Sequence record: PZ386964.1
From: a phage
Length of the DNA: 64,000 bases
Strand: one strand, 5' to 3'
In this document: positions 32,226-59,561 of the stretch, in pieces
How positions within the stretch are numbered: the first letter of the stretch is position 1
How the letters are laid out: every line of letters starts with the position of its first letter
Position numbers and translations under genes: made by a program
The notes under the pieces: model-generated
What the model saw: only the letters and a program-made list of their open reading frames with translations
What the model was told of the DNA's origin: nothing
Databases searched by the model: none

Positions 32226-32299
32226 CTAATAAACGGACGCTGCTTTACGTGTTTTGAATAATGGGATGTGTACAATGGGTCGCTTTATGCGGCCTTTTG

Positions 32300-32530
32300 T
32301 CGTTTTTGTTGGAAATTTTGAAGTGAGTGGCGTGGACCGTGGTGGTTTGAGGCTTGGTTGATACGTATGGAATTTAGGATATTGTGGATGAAAATAATAA
32401 ATAAAATGGAAATTTGTATTTATTTTTGGAGTATGAGCATTTGATTTTGGATTTTAGTGTGCGGATTTTGGAGAGTGAACCGTGGTGTGTGGTGGCGAAA
32501 GCCGCGCCGTGCCTGGATTCTATGGTTGAA
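32300..32530. repeat. Strand-skewed (GT-rich top strand) repeat region upstream of iteron locus A
   Basis: Repeated GGA(A)ATTTTG-like units and two direct copies of (G/A)ACCGTGGTG (32338-32350, 32478-32490), with an inverted copy at 32893-32905; TGTGGATGA at 32383-32391 is one mismatch from a DnaA-box complement. Confidence 0.4.
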
Positions 32531-32539
32531 GAGTACACT

Positions 32540-32812
32540 CTTACGGATAGGTTTTTATCCGTATCATGGCGCTAGGGTGCGCCGCGCCTGGATTTGTACA
32601 CTGAATCTTACGGATGATACGGATGATACGCCATTTTTCCTTATTGTAACCAGAATTATTTCAAAAATTAATTAACTCCATTTTGAATTAATTTAAATTA
32701 ATTTTTTCTACATCCTCATACTTATGTTAATTTATATATTTAACGTATTATCCGTAAGATATAAGTAAAAACAAAGACTTGCGGCAATACGGATGATACG
32801 TCATGATACGCT
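32540..32812. repeat. Iteron locus A: TACGGATGA-type repeats in both orientations flanking a ~100-bp AT-rich core
   Basis: Hairpin TACGGATA-6 nt-TATCCGTA (32542-32563); tandem ACGGATGAT twice (32610-32627); AT-rich 32641-32745 containing AATTAATTTAAATTA; inverted copy TATCCGTA (32749-32756); further TACGGATGATACG (32788-32800). Confidence 0.6.
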
Positions 32813-33024
32813 TCAACCAGCCAACTGCGGCTAAGTCATTGATTTGCATAACAAGCGGCGAAAGGGATGGATTTCTTTTATACGTATCAAACAGTACACC
32901 ACGCACCACGGTCCGTTATCCATTCAGCACTATGATTTGTGTACGTTTATAGCCATAATGAACATCAATCTGCACTTGAATATAATGTCCATCCATTGTA
33001 TAATTCACACTATTAATTTGCACT

Positions 33025-33513
33025 ATGGGATTTTGCACTATGAGTCAAGATTATGTAGCGATGCCTGAAGACTTTGAAGACCCGCGATTTGCAGAGCACA
33101 ATCAGGCTTTATTCGATGAGTTCATTGACCTTGTTATTCAGGGCCATGACATGCGCGCAGCTTTTGCACTAGTATTTGGAATGGAAGTTGCAACGGATAA
33201 CTACACTGGCCAGCGAATCCTTTGCGCGCAACGCAATCCATACTACAAGATGCGCTTCAAAAAGCGTATGGAAGAGATGCCACTCAAGGATTTGTGGAGC
33301 GTAAAAGGTGCAATTCACAATTTGGTCAAGCTTGTGCGTGATCCAGAAGTCGCGGCATCAGCCAAGCTTAATGCTATTCGTGAACTGAATATCATCTACG
33401 GCATCACGATGATTGATGAAAACGGCAATAGTAAAATGGGCCGTTCTATGGACGATTTCTACAAGGATTTTGGAGAGGCGGCCAAAGAAGGTGAGCAATT
33501 CTCCCGCCACTAG
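33025..33513 (+). CDS. Hypothetical protein, possibly DNA-binding; small-terminase-like at low confidence
   Basis: 162-aa ORF whose start codon sits inside the AATTTGCACTAT motif; helical N-terminal region then charged coiled coil; hairpin after the stop. Confidence 0.45.
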   Translation: MGFCTMSQDYVAMPEDFEDPRFAEHNQALFDEFIDLVIQGHDMRAAFALVFGMEVATDNYTGQRILCAQRNPYYKMRFKKRMEEMPLKDLWSVKGAIHNLVKLVRDPEVAASAKLNAIRELNIIYGITMIDENGNSKMGRSMDDFYKDFGEAAKEGEQFSRH

Positions 33514-33627
33514 CCAATTTGCACTATAAAACGGCCCTAGAACACATTTTCTCCACTTCTAGGGCCATCGGTAATACGACGGGGAAGGTTACAACCATAA
33601 ACGCGTTAGAAAGTGTATTATTATAAG

Positions 33628-33891
33628 TCATCTTTTAGTCACTTTCCGTAACAATTTACGACCTTCAACCGTCCAATCGAACGACTCCACCAGCAGATTT
33701 GCACCATAACCCAAGACGATGCGCCCTTTCTCGTTATCGACCCGCCAACAAGTCTCGAATAGCATTCGATTTGCACTATTAACTATTGCCGCAACGCGCG
33801 TTGGGTAAGCGCAATTTGCACTATGGTCATAAAGGGATAAGGTGCGACCACTTCCGATGGACAACGTAGCAATGAGAATAAGCGTATTCAT
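33628..33891 (-). CDS. Hypothetical small protein with hydrophobic N-terminus
   Basis: 87-aa ORF; C-terminal region paralogous to the C-terminus of the 33942-34568 product; carries two copies of the DNA motif (encoding SAN). Confidence 0.4.
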   Translation of the reverse strand: MNTLILIATLSIGSGRTLSLYDHSANCAYPTRVAAIVNSANRMLFETCWRVDNEKGRIVLGYGANLLVESFDWTVEGRKLLRKVTKR

Positions 33892-33941
33892 AAGCCACCA
33901 ATTTGCACTATGAAAAGCGACCCCGAAGGGCCGCCATTCAA

Positions 33942-34568
33942 TTAGATGATTTGGAATGTGTAGGATTTATTACCGAACTCGAAGTTCAAGCGCCCAGCTT
34001 CCTTAAGCTTCATGCGGAAGCGAATATGCTTGCTATCCGGTAGGCCCAGCGCGGCGAACGCTACGCGGACCGATTTGAACTCTCCTACACCCTCGACCAT
34101 AACGCCGTTACGGGTGAGACGCTTTTGCGCCACTTCCTTATTGTCCCAACTTTTTGCAATGCCTTCGCTATTCGAACGGCGATGGGAAGGAGTTCCATTT
34201 TGCACTACGCAATTTGCACTATCGTTTAAACCGCTCTTAACGAAGGCTTCATACTCTTCGTCGGTCATCGCGTCGAGTTCTTCCTGAGTCGGCTCGGCCT
34301 TTTTAACTACCGCACGCGCCTTATGCGTTTTTACATCGCTGGACACTTCCTCGCGCGGCTTCGCGTCGGGGATGGGCGATTCGTTGGACGGCTCATCGAG
34401 CGCGTTTAAGGACTCGATTAACGCGATTACGCGAGTCTCGGCGGTCCGGCGGTCCGCAAACTTCTTAATCGGCTTCGAACCGGAATTTGCATTATAAAAT
34501 GCAACGAGGTCGGCGGTCTTAGTTGCGATAACGTCGCCGCTAGTCGAGAAACGATTTAAGCTAACCAT
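33942..34568 (-). CDS. Hypothetical protein
   Basis: 208-aa ORF with TAGGAG site; C-terminal part (DSANC...WDNKE...NGVMVEGVG) paralogous to the 33628-33891 product. Confidence 0.5.
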   Translation of the reverse strand: MVSLNRFSTSGDVIATKTADLVAFYNANSGSKPIKKFADRRTAETRVIALIESLNALDEPSNESPIPDAKPREEVSSDVKTHKARAVVKKAEPTQEELDAMTDEEYEAFVKSGLNDSANCVVQNGTPSHRRSNSEGIAKSWDNKEVAQKRLTRNGVMVEGVGEFKSVRVAFAALGLPDSKHIRFRMKLKEAGRLNFEFGNKSYTFQII

Positions 34569-34648
34569 AATAAACTCCTATTTGTTAGGGCGCTAGGCGC
34601 GAAAGAATTTTATTAAAGCGCCGCGCACGACGCTCTAAAAATCCTCTC

Positions 34649-34933
34649 TTACGCTTCGACGAGGGAGAAGGTCTCAAATTCTTCTTCGCCCATAACGAGT
34701 AAGATATTACCGATTTCGACCGCTTCGAAGAAGTATCCGTTAACGTTTACTTCGAAGGCTTCGCGGTCCGATTCCGGTAGCGCCGCGTAAAGTTTAAAAG
34801 CCTCGGCGACCGTTACCCCACCCGCCTCGATAGTTTGGTCTACGTTCGCGGCGTAGACTTCGGATAAATTTTGTTTAACGCCGTAGTTCTCGACGATAGC
34901 GTTACGAATAGAAGAAACGTTAAGAATAGCCAT
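34649..34933 (-). CDS. Small acidic protein, paralog A
   Basis: 94 aa, strongly acidic (net about -12); TAGGAG site; paralogous to the 35568-35858 product. Confidence 0.55.
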   Translation of the reverse strand: MAILNVSSIRNAIVENYGVKQNLSEVYAANVDQTIEAGGVTVAEAFKLYAALPESDREAFEVNVNGYFFEAVEIGNILLVMGEEEFETFSLVEA

Positions 34934-35002
34934 TTTAAACTCCTAGTTGGGAGAGGCGTTAACGACCTATTCGTTAACTCATCCCGTCCCGATATGAGTA
35001 CA

Positions 35003-35029
35003 TTATAATATAGTGTAGAAAAAAGTAAA
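35003..35029 (-). promoter_or_regulatory. Possible minus-strand promoter for acidic paralog A (divergent from the 35157 gene promoter)
   Basis: Minus strand: -35 TTTACT (plus 35024-35029) within an inverted copy of the AAAGTGCTTTACT element; -10 TATAAT (plus 35003-35008) at a short 15-bp spacing. Confidence 0.3.
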
Positions 35030-35072
35030 GCACTTTTTCGATAAAAATGAGATAAATTATTTTATCTTTTTC

Positions 35073-35100
35073 TTTACTTCTTCGTACACTCGCATATACT
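35073..35100 (+). promoter_or_regulatory. Sigma70-like promoter for the 35157-35459 gene
   Basis: -35 TTTACT (35073-35078), 16-bp spacer, -10 TATACT (35095-35100); shares TTTACTTCTTCGTACACT with the next promoter. Confidence 0.5.
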
Positions 35101-35156
35101 TGTTTATATCGAGACGGGCGATGTCCCTTCCTTCTACTAGCATCGGGAGCTTTATT

Positions 35157-35459
35157 ATGACTACTTTAATCTCTTCCATCCTTACTTACGACGAAGACCG
35201 CTTAACCGTTCGCTCTCTTATCGCCGCCGTTAACGCGGAACTAGAATCTAGCGCCATTAAGGTCCGCGCGGTCGCCTTCATCGGCCTTTCCTTCGACGAT
35301 ATGAAGTATGCCGAACGTAGCGCTATCCGCTTCGCGAAGACCGACGACGAAGCCGTTACCCTTATCGAGACGGTTACGCCGCGCGGCGAAGCGTTAATTA
35401 TCGTCGAGTATATCGACGTAGAAGGCGATAAGGCTTATAAATATTTTATCGCAGAATAA
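35157..35459 (+). CDS. Small acidic protein, possibly a third member of the same family
   Basis: 100 aa; GGGAG site; promoter TTTACT, 16 bp, TATACT upstream; acidic composition similar to the flanking paralogs. Confidence 0.5.
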   Translation: MTTLISSILTYDEDRLTVRSLIAAVNAELESSAIKVRAVAFIGLSFDDMKYAERSAIRFAKTDDEAVTLIETVTPRGEALIIVEYIDVEGDKAYKYFIAE

Positions 35460-35470
35460 CGAAAAAGTGC

Positions 35471-35499
35471 TTTACTTCTTCGTACACTAAGACTATAAT
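35471..35499 (+). promoter_or_regulatory. Sigma70-like promoter for acidic paralog B
   Basis: -35 TTTACT (35471-35476), 17-bp spacer, -10 TATAAT (35494-35499). Confidence 0.55.
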
Positions 35500-35567
35500 G
35501 TTTTATATCGAGAGGGGGATGAGGTAGCGAATAGGTCGCTACCCTCCCGACCAACTAGGAGATTATT

Positions 35568-35858
35568 ATGATTACTTTAGCCGCTATCCGTAACGCTCGC
35601 GCCGAAACTTCCGAAAACTCTAACGTATTTGGCGAAAAACTTAAAAACGTTTATCTCTTTAACGTAGATGCGACTATCGAGGAGCTTCATAGTCCTATCG
35701 ATTTTAGCGAATTTACGGAACTCGAAGAGGAAGATATTTCTACCTTCCGCGTTACTATCGAAGGCAAGGTTTATTTTGCTACGGAGTTCGGCGGCGAATA
35801 TCTCGCGGTATCCGAAGGCGAAGGCCGTTACTCTTTCTTTAAAATCGTCTCCTTATAA
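35568..35858 (+). CDS. Small acidic protein, paralog B
   Basis: 96 aa; AGGAG site; promoter TTTACT, 17 bp, TATAAT upstream; terminator downstream; N-terminal and FxV...G...F.A.E.G motifs shared with paralog A. Confidence 0.55.
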   Translation: MITLAAIRNARAETSENSNVFGEKLKNVYLFNVDATIEELHSPIDFSEFTELEEEDISTFRVTIEGKVYFATEFGGEYLAVSEGEGRYSFFKIVSL

Positions 35859-35878
35859 TACCCTTCCGTTATTAATAG

Positions 35879-35903
35879 GCCGCGCTTAGTCGCGGCTTTT
35901 CTT
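35879..35903 (+). terminator. Rho-independent terminator after acidic paralog B
   Basis: Hairpin GCCGCG-CTTAGT-CGCGGC followed by TTTTCTT. Confidence 0.6.
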
Positions 35904-35905
35904 CG

Positions 35906-36557
35906 TCCCTATCTCGATGCGCTTCTCCGCGAAAACTCCTTTATCCTTCCCTTCTTCGTCGCATAATCTTCATCGAGATGCGCCTTAGTTCGCATAACAG
36001 GTATTACGTTAAATGGAGAACATCGCGTAAGTCCTTGTTTTATATAGACACCTATATCGGACCGTTAGGGCGGGTCGCGTAAGTCGTTGTTTTATAAAGG
36101 CGCAAAACTTTCCCTTCGTTCCGAACTAAAACGAGAAATATGCCGACCCTTCGCCGGAAAATAGTACGCATGCGAAATTACATGCATCTAGAATAATCCC
36201 CACCGATATTATCCTACACGCAATCATTCGCTTTCGAATCATTATGCTTCATATTATTATGCGTCGAATCATTCGCTTTCGAATTGTAACGCTGGAAACT
36301 GTAACGTCGATTGATTATTGCGTTCGTGTGGTTTTTATGGCATGGGTCTTTTGGTGCGTTTTGCTACTTGATGGAATTTGCAGTACACTAATCAAAATAC
36401 GACACATTTGGTCCACTAACTTTTCAAAGAAAAAGTCCTAGACAGTACCGTACTATTTTGTACCCACAGGAAATTTGCAGTACACTCCTGTGCGGCAGGC
36501 AAAATAAAGGGCCGCACCAAGCGACCCACGATTCACGGTTAAATCAACAAGCACCCA
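35906..36557. repeat. ORF-free, repeat-rich ~650-bp region
   Basis: Direct repeat CGCGTAAGTC(C/G)TTGTTTTATA (36014 and 36076); palindrome ATTCGCTTTCGAAT twice (36225, 36270); AATTTGCAGTACACT twice (about 36366 and 36470); hairpin GTGCGGC-14 nt-GCCGCAC. Confidence 0.5.
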
Positions 36558-48283: not shown

Positions 48284-48421
48284 ATGCAAAAGATTATTCA
48301 GTCACGTTACGTTAAAGTGCGAAATATTAATTGCAACTCTTTGCTTTCTTGGAAATGGGCTGTTTACGACTCGATGCTGATTGGCGTTTTAGTTGCTGGA
48401 GTGCTTTTTAATATTCACTGA
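48284..48421 (+). CDS. Small membrane peptide (45 aa), absent from the ORF track
   Basis: Strong AAGAGGAAG site 6 nt before the ATG; hydrophobic helix SMLIGVLVAGVLF. Confidence 0.4.
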   Translation: MQKIIQSRYVKVRNINCNSLLSWKWAVYDSMLIGVLVAGVLFNIH

Positions 48422-48461
48422 ATCGCCTGGCAATGGATTGCCGCAGGATTTTACGCGTATA

Positions 48462-48723
48462 ATGACGTATCATCCGTATCAAGTAAGTAGTTGTTTTCGA
48501 AAGAATCTTACGGGTGATACGGATGATACGCGTTGCCGCGATACTTTATAGGAATTCAAATAAATTAATTTAAAATTATATATCTAATTTAATTTTATTT
48601 TTTTATAAACTCTTATATATGAAAAGTATCCGTATCATCCGTATCATCCGTAGCACACCAGTGATAGCGCGGCTTATACACCGATACGGATAAAAATACG
48701 CCTCATTTTATCCGTATCATCCG
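48462..48723. repeat. Iteron locus B: long inverted repeat of GATACGGATGATACG-type units around an AT-rich core, plus a 13-bp-arm hairpin
   Basis: Left arm CTTACGGGTGATACGGATGATACGCG (48506-48532); AT-rich 48533-48618 containing AATTAATTTAAAATTA; right arm GTATCCGTATCATCCGTATCATCCGTAGC (48618-48646); hairpin GATACGGATAAAA-10 nt-TTTTATCCGTATC (48675-48710). Confidence 0.6.
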
Positions 48724-48785
48724 TATCACACTAATTAAGTCGCGGCTATATCGGTTGTTATACATATTCAAACCATAATTATTGT

Positions 48786-48814
48786 TTGCCTAAGTTTTTT
48801 TCATTAGATATAAT
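48786..48814 (+). promoter_or_regulatory. Sigma70-like promoter for the head-gene operon
   Basis: -35 TTGCCT (48786-48791), 17-bp spacer, -10 TATAAT (48809-48814), just downstream of iteron locus B. Confidence 0.55.
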
Positions 48815-48837
48815 ACACAATACTTATTTGAGGGTGG

Positions 48838-50259
48838 ATGCGAATGCAAACGGCACGCGAAATTGACAAAAATGGATTCTTGACGATTGTGGGTTGTCCC
48901 ATTTCGTCATTTGGCATTTTTGATTATTCTGCAGGTCAGGTTGGACTTGATGGTGATCCGAATCGCATCGTAAAAGTTTATCGCCCAGAGTCAGCGGTGA
49001 AAGACCCCGAAGCGATAGATTCATTCAAAAATATCCCTTTCATCGACAATCACGAAATGCTTTCTGGATTCGAAGGTGATGAGGATAACACAGCACCCGA
49101 AGAGTATGGCGTTGATGGCGTTCTAACTGGCAATGTTTATTATGACAAGCCATGGATGCGCGGCGACCTTAAAGTGTTTAGCCGTCGTCTTAAGAAGGCC
49201 ATTGATTCTGGAAAGGCTGATTTGTCTTTGGGCTATGACTGTGAATTCATCATACAGTCTGGAGAGTTTGACGGGCAGCCGTATGAAGTGGTACAAACAA
49301 CTCTTCGCGGCAACCATATTGCTCTCGTGGACGTTGGTCGAGTACCAGGTGCACGGGTGCTGGATGGTCGTTGCTTTGACCATCTTTGTTTGACGACTGT
49401 AACACCATCCAACGAGGATTTAGACATGCCAAAACCGTTAAAAGGTAAAGCGCGTGATAATGCTGTTGAACAGCTGAAATCACTGATCCCTGCGCTCGAA
49501 CAATTTCTGAATGAAGAGAGCACCGAAGCTGCTCATCAGGACGAAGTTGAAGTGAAAGCAGAAGAGAAGGATTCAACCGAAGAACGTGAAGAAGTGATGG
49601 TTGATCCAGAAGTTAAAGCAGAAGCTGAAGAGACTCCAGAAGGTGAAGAGAAGTTTGAAGTTGAAACTGAATCTCACGCTGGCGGCGAACTTCCGCAACT
49701 GATCAGCCAAATCGAAGCACTTATTGCAAAACTGAAAGGTGGCGCGGTAGGTGATGAAGAAGAAGTTGAAGCCGAAGTCAAAGACGAAGAAGAAATTGAA
49801 GTCAAGGCTGAAGATGTATCACCTTGCGACAAAGCTGAAGATGTGGTTAGCGGCCTGCAAAACAGCAACGTAAAGGGGGCTTCGGTCGAAAAAGATGACA
49901 AACCGACAAAAGCGGCGAAAGCGTCGCCAGGTCCAGCAAAAGGGGAACACTCAATGGCATCTGATTCAGCAGTTGCTGCTTTCTACGCTGATTCTGCTCG
50001 TAAGAATAGCCTCTACCAGCGCCTGTCTAAAGTTGTTGGTGCCTTTGATCATGCAACTATGGACTCCAAGTCCGTAGCGAAATATGGCGCTAAAAAGTTA
50101 GGCTTGAAGTGCGTTGATGGTGCTGAGTTTGACGTTGTGGATAATTATCTGCGCGGCGTTGAACACGGTCAAAAACAGCGTGTAGTCGCAAAACAAAAGG
50201 CCGCTGCGGATTCTGCAGCAACTGACGAAGCATTTGAAGCTTGGTTGAAAGGGGAATAA
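48838..50259 (+). CDS. Head scaffolding / prohead-protease-like protein (putative)
   Basis: N-terminal domain with LRGNHIALVDVGR motif, long Glu/Lys-rich acidic linker, C-terminal domain; promoter TTGCCT, 17 bp, TATAAT upstream. Start may be the ATG at 48844. Confidence 0.45.
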   Translation: MRMQTAREIDKNGFLTIVGCPISSFGIFDYSAGQVGLDGDPNRIVKVYRPESAVKDPEAIDSFKNIPFIDNHEMLSGFEGDEDNTAPEEYGVDGVLTGNVYYDKPWMRGDLKVFSRRLKKAIDSGKADLSLGYDCEFIIQSGEFDGQPYEVVQTTLRGNHIALVDVGRVPGARVLDGRCFDHLCLTTVTPSNEDLDMPKPLKGKARDNAVEQLKSLIPALEQFLNEESTEAAHQDEVEVKAEEKDSTEEREEVMVDPEVKAEAEETPEGEEKFEVETESHAGGELPQLISQIEALIAKLKGGAVGDEEEVEAEVKDEEEIEVKAEDVSPCDKAEDVVSGLQNSNVKGASVEKDDKPTKAAKASPGPAKGEHSMASDSAVAAFYADSARKNSLYQRLSKVVGAFDHATMDSKSVAKYGAKKLGLKCVDGAEFDVVDNYLRGVEHGQKQRVVAKQKAAADSAATDEAFEAWLKGE

Positions 50260-59144: not shown

Positions 59145-59561
59145 ATGAAGATCACCAATAAACAAACTGGTCGTAAAGTAGAAATTAAAATCAGCAAAAT
59201 GACTGCGATGGAAGGTTGGAACATACAGCGCCGATTCATCGAATTTGCGATGTCAAAAGACCCTGCCTTTCGTTCAGAATACACAATGGAAGTATTAAGC
59301 TTTGCGAAGGTTGAACTTGATGTCGGGCAAGAAATTCCTCTGAGCACTGGCGCACTTATTGACAACCATCTTGGCGACTGGGAAAACTTAAAATTGGTTT
59401 TCGAAGCAGTGTTGATGGAAAACGGAATCAACCCAGAGACTCACGCTGAACGTGAAGGATACTGGGAACAAGCCGGCGGCGAAATGGCTGCAGCATTTAT
59501 TGGCGAATCGATGCGATTAATCGCGCCATTCCTCAGCGGCGAGACTCCAAACAAGGGGTAA
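59145..59561 (+). CDS. Tail assembly chaperone (putative)
   Basis: 138-aa ORF immediately upstream of the tape measure gene. Confidence 0.4.
   Translation: MKITNKQTGRKVEIKISKMTAMEGWNIQRRFIEFAMSKDPAFRSEYTMEVLSFAKVELDVGQEIPLSTGALIDNHLGDWENLKLVFEAVLMENGINPETHAEREGYWEQAGGEMAAAFIGESMRLIAPFLSGETPNKG

Follow-up and report, generated by a model that had tools for sequence, protein, structure and literature searches.

A putative second copy of the packaging-terminus module upstream of the capsid operon in Wifcevirus phages

Packaging Signals and Paired Recognition Sites

In phage P1, pac is built of hexamer clusters that flank the cut, and in the satellite phage P4 the ori and crr sites carry the same initiator-binding repeats, both being needed in cis. 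The pac site of SPP1 likewise offers multiple contacts flanking the cut (PMC9611059). Phage T4 has two homologous pac-type sequences, in gene 16 and in gene 19, and a “twin-ring pac synapsis,” in which the small terminase (TerS) would bring the two sites together, has been proposed for it (PMC10893049; PMC9611059). The recognition of viral DNA by small terminases is a long-standing open problem; ring structures are known, but specific DNA complexes are scarce. The specific binding of a pac-type TerS to its site is described as weak and hard to demonstrate in vitro (PMC9611059, PMC10893049). For TerS of the E217 type, ring stacking via the C-terminal helix has been suggested (PMC9611059). In this same review, the E217 protein is described as a decamer with no appreciable DNA binding in vitro, and its pac site as undefined at that time.

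Here we describe two related modules in the window, i.e., the whole stretch of 64,000 nucleotides of phage DNA that was analyzed (PZ386964.1). Locus A holds a genome end and adjoins the TerS gene, and locus B lies upstream of the head operon. Like SPP1 pacL-pacC-pacR, which is bound by the TerS G1P, and like P1 pac, locus A has short repeats on both sides of a cut region of ~100 bp, beside the TerS gene. Locus B shares the arms and the core, but the cut and the TerS gene are 15.9 kb away, and none of the records with determined ends begins at B. The descriptions of SPP1 and P1 pac include no conserved second copy, and the outcome also differs, with a precise 3.7-kb direct terminal repeat (DTR) in Wifcevirus as opposed to headful permutation in SPP1 and P1. 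As with genes 16 and 19 of T4, the large terminase gene is framed by two homologous pac-type sequences of the same genome. However, the T4 sequences are short, GC-rich, and in coding regions, whereas modules A and B are 200-300 bp long, non-coding, AT-cored, and made of explicit repeat arrays. A further difference from T4 is that A and B display sequence homogenization only, no recombination or amplification between them having been observed.

Two other systems deserve comparison. In iteron origins and in P4 ori-crr, as in A and B, the same short repeat is found in direct and inverted orientations at two loci kilobases apart, together with an AT-rich segment. The tandem 9-bp units beside a core of 10% GC in locus B do have the architecture of an iteron origin, with which they are compatible without being specific to origins. 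Unlike iteron origins and P4, A and B are without DnaA boxes and without an adjacent initiator gene, and at one of the two loci a packaging cut has been mapped. The “a” sequences of herpesviruses (pac1/pac2) resemble A and B in that a packaging or cleavage signal is found at the genome end as well as inside the genome, at the L-S junction. Neither the sequences nor the proteins are related, and the internal herpesvirus copy is inverted and drives isomerization, whereas the A and B copies are direct in five lineages and ambiguous in orientation in Wifcevirus, with no sign of inversion. In the part of the literature that was covered, neither these motifs nor a second module resembling pac had been described.

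Organization of Locus B

The window comes from a Wifcevirus, a myovirus of E. coli and Shigella whose group includes ECML-117, FEC19, WFC, WFH, Mansfield, and Bas98-101, and across the region of locus B it is 95-99% identical to this group. In the BASEL paper, the Wifcevirus phages are distant relatives of the Pseudomonas Pbunavirus (PB1-like) phages (PMC11990801). Locus B is a non-coding gap of 416 bp (48422-48837). To its right, the head maturation protease gene (473 aa, 48838-50259, + strand) opens the protease-scaffold-major capsid operon. Its left neighbor is a 45-aa ORF (48284-48421), itself located after the head-fiber gene. This small ORF (MQKIIQSRYVKVRNINCNSLLSWKWAVYDSMLIGVLVAGVLFNIH) has a hydrophobic C-terminal segment and is annotated in several relatives, and it has no match in Pfam or PHROG. 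Among the genes flanking locus B (head fiber, 45-aa ORF, and protease), there is no linked initiator gene.

All of the locus B arms are composed of a 9-bp unit, ATCCGTATC, which is present eight times within 260 bp. Seven copies are exact (starting at 48472+, 48516-, 48628+, 48637+, 48683-, 48710+, and 48719+) and one has a single mismatch (48646+), and the tandem copies are spaced by exactly 9 bp. When up to one mismatch is allowed, the unit matches the 64-kb window 25 times, compared to 10.7 +/- 3.0 times in shuffles, with eight of the 25 matches gathered in these 260 bp. The 8-mer ATACGGAT occurs 11 times in the window: seven times in gap B, three in locus A, and once elsewhere.

When it was read from sequence alone, the locus was described as an inverted repeat with ~25-bp arms across an 85-bp AT-rich spacer, and this description holds up well. 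Each main arm (48509-48530 and 48631-48652) measures 22 nt, with 95% complementarity and 100 nt between the two, and in the single-stranded DNA fold their pairing carries on through GATACTTT/AAAGTATC, leaving a core of 84 bp. The left arm is made of three 9-bp units (CTTACGGGTGATACGGATGATACG, 48505-48530, - strand) and the right arm of three tandem ones (GTATCCGTATCATCCGTATCATCCGTAGC, 48625-48654, + strand). The AT-rich core in between (48541-48624, 84 bp) has a GC content of 10%, for a window average of 46%. Further out, a left site (CGTATCATCCGTATCA, 48466-48481, + strand) forms with 48515-48530 a third inverted pair that was absent from the earlier description, with 16-nt arms that are 100% complementary, a 33-nt spacer, and a fold z of -6.7. 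Three ATCCGTATC-type units on either side of the 84-bp core, plus these outer sites, make up repeat clusters flanking the core. The second hairpin, for which 13-bp arms had been announced, is found as a perfect pair: in GATACGGATAAAA N10 TTTTATCCGTATC (48683-48727), the 13-nt arms 48683-48695 and 48706-48718 are 100% complementary around a 10-nt loop, and the right arm runs into the tandem unit at 48719-48727. Its single-stranded fold has an energy of -11.1 kcal/mol (z = -6.0), and overall the single-strand folds of locus B are far stabler than those of shuffles, with z from -6 to -7. Against Rfam, the locus gave only hairpin matches below threshold, the best of them reaching 18-27 bits for thresholds of 50-140.

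The palindrome had also been proposed as cruciform-capable DNA. Cruciform extrusion needs short spacers. From this established knowledge, a cruciform across the 100-nt spacer is mechanistically unlikely, and only the hairpin with 13-bp arms and a 10-nt loop has a geometry suited to it.

Within Wifcevirus, locus B is near-invariant from 48500 to the ATG, and the 80 bp to the left vary freely. The AT-rich core (48541-48624) is invariant across six Wifcevirus genomes, save for a one-base length difference in a T-run of FEC19. The only variable unit of the array is the outermost one of the left arm (48513-48514), which reads TACGGGTGA in the window, with a G at 48514, TACGGATGA in five relatives, with an A at 48514, and TACGTATGA in Mansfield.

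The promoter that had been placed about 60 bp downstream is a sigma70-like match, TTGCCT-17-TATAAT (48786-48814, + strand). It starts 63 bp past the end of the region as first delimited, stops 24 bp before the ATG at 48838, and agrees with 10 of the 12 consensus positions. This is a consensus match only, and the number of promoter-like matches is not above that of shuffles. The nearest ATCCGTATC unit ends at 48727 and the -35 box begins at 48786, leaving a gap of 58 bp. Reading the sequences by eye, similar matches are seen at the equivalent place in the phages Kyle and SN. Promoter-like matches are also present at 32959-33004, between locus A and the TerS gene.

The Paralogous Locus and the Genome End

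When gap B was slid along the 64-kb window, locus A was the sole strong match, with a score of 77 as compared to 30 for the next tile and a median of 21 over 154 tiles. A and B are unique mutual best matches in the window, which bears out the link to another “iteron locus” drawn in the sequence-only reading. Locus A (32540-32813) is situated within a 0.8-kb gap (32226-33024), and its layout matches that of locus B, with repeat clusters on either side of an AT-rich core. From left to right, it comprises an inverted site pair (32540-32565), a left arm (32607-32630, CTTACGGATGATACGGATGATACG), an AT-rich core of 114 bp with 18% GC (32631-32744), a right site (32745-32758, CGTATTATCCGTAAG), and further sites (32786-32813).

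The core of locus A, whose counterpart in locus B is 48541-48624, holds the terminase cut. In three independent deposited records (WFH, WFC, and Mansfield), position 1 maps in each case to window position 32680, inside this core. The WFH record has an exact 3,701-bp direct terminal repeat whose first base is 32680, the Mansfield terminal repeat was predicted by PhageTerm, and the ECO71P1 record ends within ~10 bp of 32680. The left physical genome end and the start of the DTR are thereby placed at 32679-32680, between AACTCC and ATTTTG. As mapped from relatives, the DTR (~3.7 kb) covers 32680-36351, with a right end at 36351 in WFH and Mansfield and at 36432 in WFC. Since WFH and Mansfield also share the right boundary at 36351, the ends are precise. 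A terminal repeat of ~3.7 kb was reported by Korf et al. (PMC6563267) and in the Mansfield announcement (PMC6753283).

The TerS gene (33025-33513, + strand) matches the “Small terminase” of PDB 7UXE (E = 6e-34) and is annotated as TerS in Mansfield. The genome end in locus A is ~350 bp upstream from it. The terminal repeat includes the TerS gene itself, and ~8.4 kb separate this gene from that of the large terminase (~41870); the genes in between are oppositely oriented and include the tail fiber gene. The same separation of TerS from the large terminase is reported for E217 (PMC9611059). Locus A is a packaging-initiation (pac) or terminus-generation site, and because the cut falls between flanking repeat clusters beside TerS, these repeats are most simply terminase recognition elements. 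Locus B is ~15-15.9 kb from the cut site and the TerS gene, and so not adjacent to TerS, and the conserved Wifcevirus cut context AACTCC/ATTTT (cut at the slash) is absent from it.

The right boundary of the DTR, between GGGTCTTT and TGGTGCG, is without ATCCGTATC units and without an AT-rich core, so that the two DTR boundaries look unrelated. AATCATTCGCTTTCGAAT is present twice just inside this boundary (36222-36239 and 36268-36285) and GRAATTTGCAGTACACT twice just outside (36373-36389 and 36470-36486), and these direct repeats may be candidate recognition elements for right-end formation. Among the Wifcevirus genomes, the sequence to the right of the cut at 32680 is 90-100% conserved. The part of gap A left of the module (32226-32600) forms the right end of the unique region; it is hypervariable, being replaced or unalignable.

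The window scores, 77 inverted vs. 57 direct, first suggested that B is an inverted copy of A. This reading was dropped, as the direct orientation gave the higher score in five other lineages and in three other Wifcevirus genomes. The AT-rich cores of A and B are statistically not orientable (direct 50, inverted 40, shuffles 38 +/- 6). Since the flanks align inverted in the window, the core has no clear orientation, and other Wifcevirus genomes are slightly better in direct orientation, the module is treated as quasi-palindromic.

A tract of ~46 bp (ATCTTACGGATGATACGGATGATACGCGTYGCCGCKATACTTTATA) reads almost the same in the A and the B of ECML-117, and likewise in those of FEC19, and the A of the window diverges just past the arm. 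This pattern suggests a recent gene conversion between the two sites. Copies of the module were also sought in satellites and hosts: there was no match in 5,426 E. coli genomes, and an exact-arm search of IMG/VR retrieved Wifcevirus contigs only.

Conservation of the Two-Site Arrangement

The two-site arrangement is found across the PB1-like myovirus supergroup, in six lineages: Wifcevirus, Kylevirus, a Myosmarvirus-like group, Pbunavirus, and the uncultured u42156 and u26416. For 13 genomes, with the loci of both genes fetched from IMG/VR, every gap B was scored against every gap A. The resulting matrix is block-diagonal, with scores of 61-130 within lineages and 20-35 between them, shuffles giving 23 +/- 2.5. 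Each lineage has its own repeat motif, common to its two sites and rare elsewhere. In Wifcevirus this is ATCCGTATC, with the 8-mer distribution given above (three in A, seven in B, one elsewhere in 64 kb), and in Kylevirus it is AATAACC. The Myosmar-like motif AAAAGTA is present three times in A, seven in B, and once elsewhere in the flanks examined, and the corresponding counts are seven, seven, and zero for TATCCGA in u42156 and six, seven, and two for CCGCAAC in u26416. For the Pbunavirus motif GGTAATTTG, the 8-mer is found twice in A, three times in B, and once elsewhere in 66 kb.

In Pantoea phage Kyle, whose protease is 57% identical to that of the window and whose repeat is AATAACC/GGTTATT, an exact 3,603-bp DTR begins in an AT-rich core 356 bp upstream from the TerS homologue. 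The 260-bp stretch around the DTR junction aligns, with a score of 125, to the 515-bp gap upstream of the Kyle protease gene. The same site pairing, with GGTAATTTG repeats, is observed in Pseudomonas phage SN (44% protease identity). In the Pbunavirus JG024, 36 of 161 long nanopore reads start at 59,376 +/- 5, and a matching pac fragment was seen (Ipoutcha et al., PMC10913387), and Ab27-29 have a single fixed Illumina read end (Essoh et al., PMC4482731). The JG024 start and the Ab27 end coincide at a single nucleotide, SN 59279, which has the left repeat cluster of module A on one side and the right cluster on the other. Together with the Wifcevirus and Kyle ends, this Pbunavirus cut shows that packaging starts at site A in one headful lineage and in two lineages with terminal repeats.

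A universal 9-bp period reflecting ring geometry was considered and rejected. Tandem units recur every 9 bp in Wifcevirus and Kyle, every 8 bp in Pbunavirus, and at irregular intervals in the other lineages, so an argument from ring geometry does not hold in general. Upstream of the protease gene, relatives of at least 44% identity usually show an AT-rich dip, which distant 40-kb phages lack; the underlying gap-length survey of 52 protease loci is noisy, with spurious ORFs in GC-rich genomes, and shows only this dip pattern.

Possible Roles of the Second Module

As B shares the arms and core of A and the pairing of the two sites recurs in six lineages, locus B is, by the criterion of sequence, a co-evolving paralogue of the pac/terminus module, i.e., its second copy. 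B keeps the lineage-specific elements of A through at least six motif replacements, which argues for a shared reader or for homogenization under strong constraint. Almost certainly, the same phage-specific DNA-binding factor would read A and B, or at the least B would be continuously homogenized with A under such constraint. Concerted evolution could partly stem from gene conversion rather than from a shared reader. Given the co-variation of A and B and the position of TerS next to A, the most likely binder of locus B is TerS. It is the only candidate identified: in Pfam and PHROG screens, no DNA-binding alternative was recognizable among the genes near A and the neighboring genes. Because the partner locus holds the genome end or pac site beside TerS and the pair co-varies in six lineages, the packaging machinery is indicated rather than a dedicated operator of late transcription.

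Judging from the coordinates of deposited records rather than from reads, locus B does not seem to serve as a major site of cleavage. Among the genome records whose ends were determined, none starts at B, and six or seven Wifcevirus records start at A. The starts at A were placed by direct mapping for WFH, WFC, Mansfield, ECO71P1, and Kyle, and by coordinate estimate for Ro157lw and SP13. The long reads of JG024 form one start cluster (PMC10913387). We lean, with moderate confidence, toward B being a second, uncut TerS-binding module that would act on the adjacent promoter of the capsid operon or pair with the pac complex.

A model can be proposed on this basis. TerS rings would bind the repeat arrays at A and B, with neighboring subunits reading the tandem 9-bp units. 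At A, the terminase cuts in the AT-rich core between the repeat clusters, directly upstream from the TerS gene. At B, TerS would act architecturally or as a regulator, without major cleavage. It might pair with the pac complex, as in the gene 16/gene 19 “pac synapsis” of T4, or it might tie head-gene transcription from the adjacent promoter to the level of terminase. The inverted arms speak against this TerS model, being unlike the direct repeats predicted for a single DNA-wrapping ring. The reported lack of appreciable in vitro DNA binding by the homologous TerS of E217 (PMC9611059) also counts against it. Extended to all PB1-like phages (Pbunavirus, Wifcevirus, Kylevirus, Myosmarvirus, and uncultured relatives), the model becomes a tentative and rather doubtful proposal: these phages would use two-site terminase recognition, with TerS on lineage-specific arrays both at pac and at a second uncut module before the capsid operon, and pairing of the sites or occupancy of the second one would license packaging or couple capsid expression to the terminase supply.

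The architecture of iterons plus an AT-rich core fits a replication origin equally well, and the sequence-only reading had raised the possibility of a second origin. A and B would then be an origin pair in the manner of P4 ori/crr, with arms binding a lineage-specific initiator such as the phage primase-helicase, an AT-rich core serving as the unwinding element, and a packaging cut at A that merely falls in or next to the origin. Short tandem and inverted repeats do flank cores of 84-114 bp with 10-18% GC, two copies are conserved in six lineages, and the Pbunavirus gap A is directly downstream from the primase gene. The cumulative GC skew turns at 32-33 kb, although this turn coincides with a change in transcription direction and is confounded by it. 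What stands of the origin idea is the iteron-like repeats and the AT-rich core. When scanned, neither core showed a perfect DnaA box or an IHF consensus; a one-mismatch IHF-like AAACAA..ACTT common to an A flank and a B flank is unremarkable in frequency. There is no initiator gene linked to B, and no independent sign of an origin was found. In addition, the terminase cut lies inside the A core between repeat clusters in three lineages, a position that a pac site predicts and an origin pair leaves unexplained. An origin pair is a real but less likely rival. We consider even less probable a second proposal, in which the arrays would serve a dedicated phage transcription factor, distinct from TerS, as operators or upstream activating sites. 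This factor would co-regulate two late operons, that of TerS at A and that of the protease, scaffold, and capsid at B, each with a sigma70-like promoter downstream. Both modules are indeed 60-250 bp upstream of promoter-like sites reading into the next gene (48786-48814 and 32959-33004), comparable TATAAT-type matches precede the same genes in Kyle and SN in our own reading, and consensus-like promoters on late genes would need timing control. From the original suggestion of a dimeric binding site controlling late transcription, the dyad-symmetric multi-site array around an AT-rich core and upstream of a promoter is retained, and the dedicated operator is less favored. Such an operator leaves the genome end or pac cut in the A core of three lineages unexplained, the units overlap neither the -35 nor the -10 box and the nearest one ends 58 bp upstream of the -35, the promoter-like matches are no more numerous than in shuffles, and no DNA-binding regulator is recognizable among the neighboring genes.

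The two last readings are both improbable. Locus B might be an active secondary packaging-initiation site, with minority cuts in its core producing a second class of permuted virion genomes. It does retain the arms and the AT-rich core, and in Kyle the cut sequence of A (ATAAATTC/ACTTAAAAAAAATA, cut at the slash) is nearly kept in B (ATAAATTGACTACAAAAAAATA). One metagenomic Wifcevirus contig (IMGVR_UViG_3300045988_152943; 68,520 bp, 100% protease identity to the window) ends exactly at the start of the left arm of B, but this is likely an assembly break at a repeat common to A and B rather than a sign that the DNA physically ends there. All records with determined ends begin at A, JG024 has its one start cluster, and the Wifcevirus cut context AACTCC/ATTTT is missing from B, all of which weighs against minority cutting there. 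Very improbable indeed is the notion that the palindromes are pure DNA or RNA structure (cruciform, hairpin terminator, or attenuator) without a dedicated binder, or a neutral product of gene conversion. The z values of -6 to -7 for the single-strand folds are in its favor, but no Rfam family reaches its threshold and the large palindrome has a 100-nt spacer. Moreover, each lineage keeps a different primary motif and not mere pairing, and uses it both in direct tandem and inverted; the locus is near-invariant in Wifcevirus, and the arrangement persists from E. coli to Pseudomonas phages.

Implications for Packaging and Phage Engineering

The present comparison provides explicit candidate recognition motifs for six lineages around mapped cut sites, for example GGTAATTTG in Pbunavirus and ATCCGTATC in Wifcevirus. 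Explicit DNA targets thereby become available for a TerS family whose structure is solved (PDB 7UXE) and whose pac site is undefined, making its recognition directly testable. For the TerS of Wifcevirus and of E217, candidate cognate arms are 3x ATCCGTATC and GGTAATTTGGTAATTTGG. Engineered E. coli K-12 can now be used to grow the Wifcevirus phages Bas98-101, and synthetic rebooting is under way for Pbunaviruses, which are among the leading phages in therapy, a setting in which essential cis-elements matter. If the two-site TerS reading is true, A and B would represent the “pac synapsis” idea of T4 in a natural form defined by sequence. If locus B is an origin instead, it would locate the unknown origins of a therapeutically important group.

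Other Elements Common to the Two Gaps

The left edges of both gaps carry an element GCCGCGCCTGG/CGCCTGGCAA, found at 32511, 32586, 48186, and 48425, with one copy sitting 90 bp before the end of the head-fiber gene. Phage-specific promoters with a CTGGG core are known from Pbunavirus 14-1 (PMC10914365), and the GCCGCGCCTGG/CGCCTGGCAA elements could be their Wifcevirus counterpart, reading through both modules. Another motif, YGCGGCWA, is present 33 times in 64 kb when roughly eight are expected from its length. Five copies are in the two gaps (32780, 32826, 48438, 48533, and 48741), and related CGCGGC elements are seen in the equivalent gaps of Kyle and SN. Some of the YGCGGCWA copies are halves of GC-rich terminator stems, such as the one at 35878-35905.
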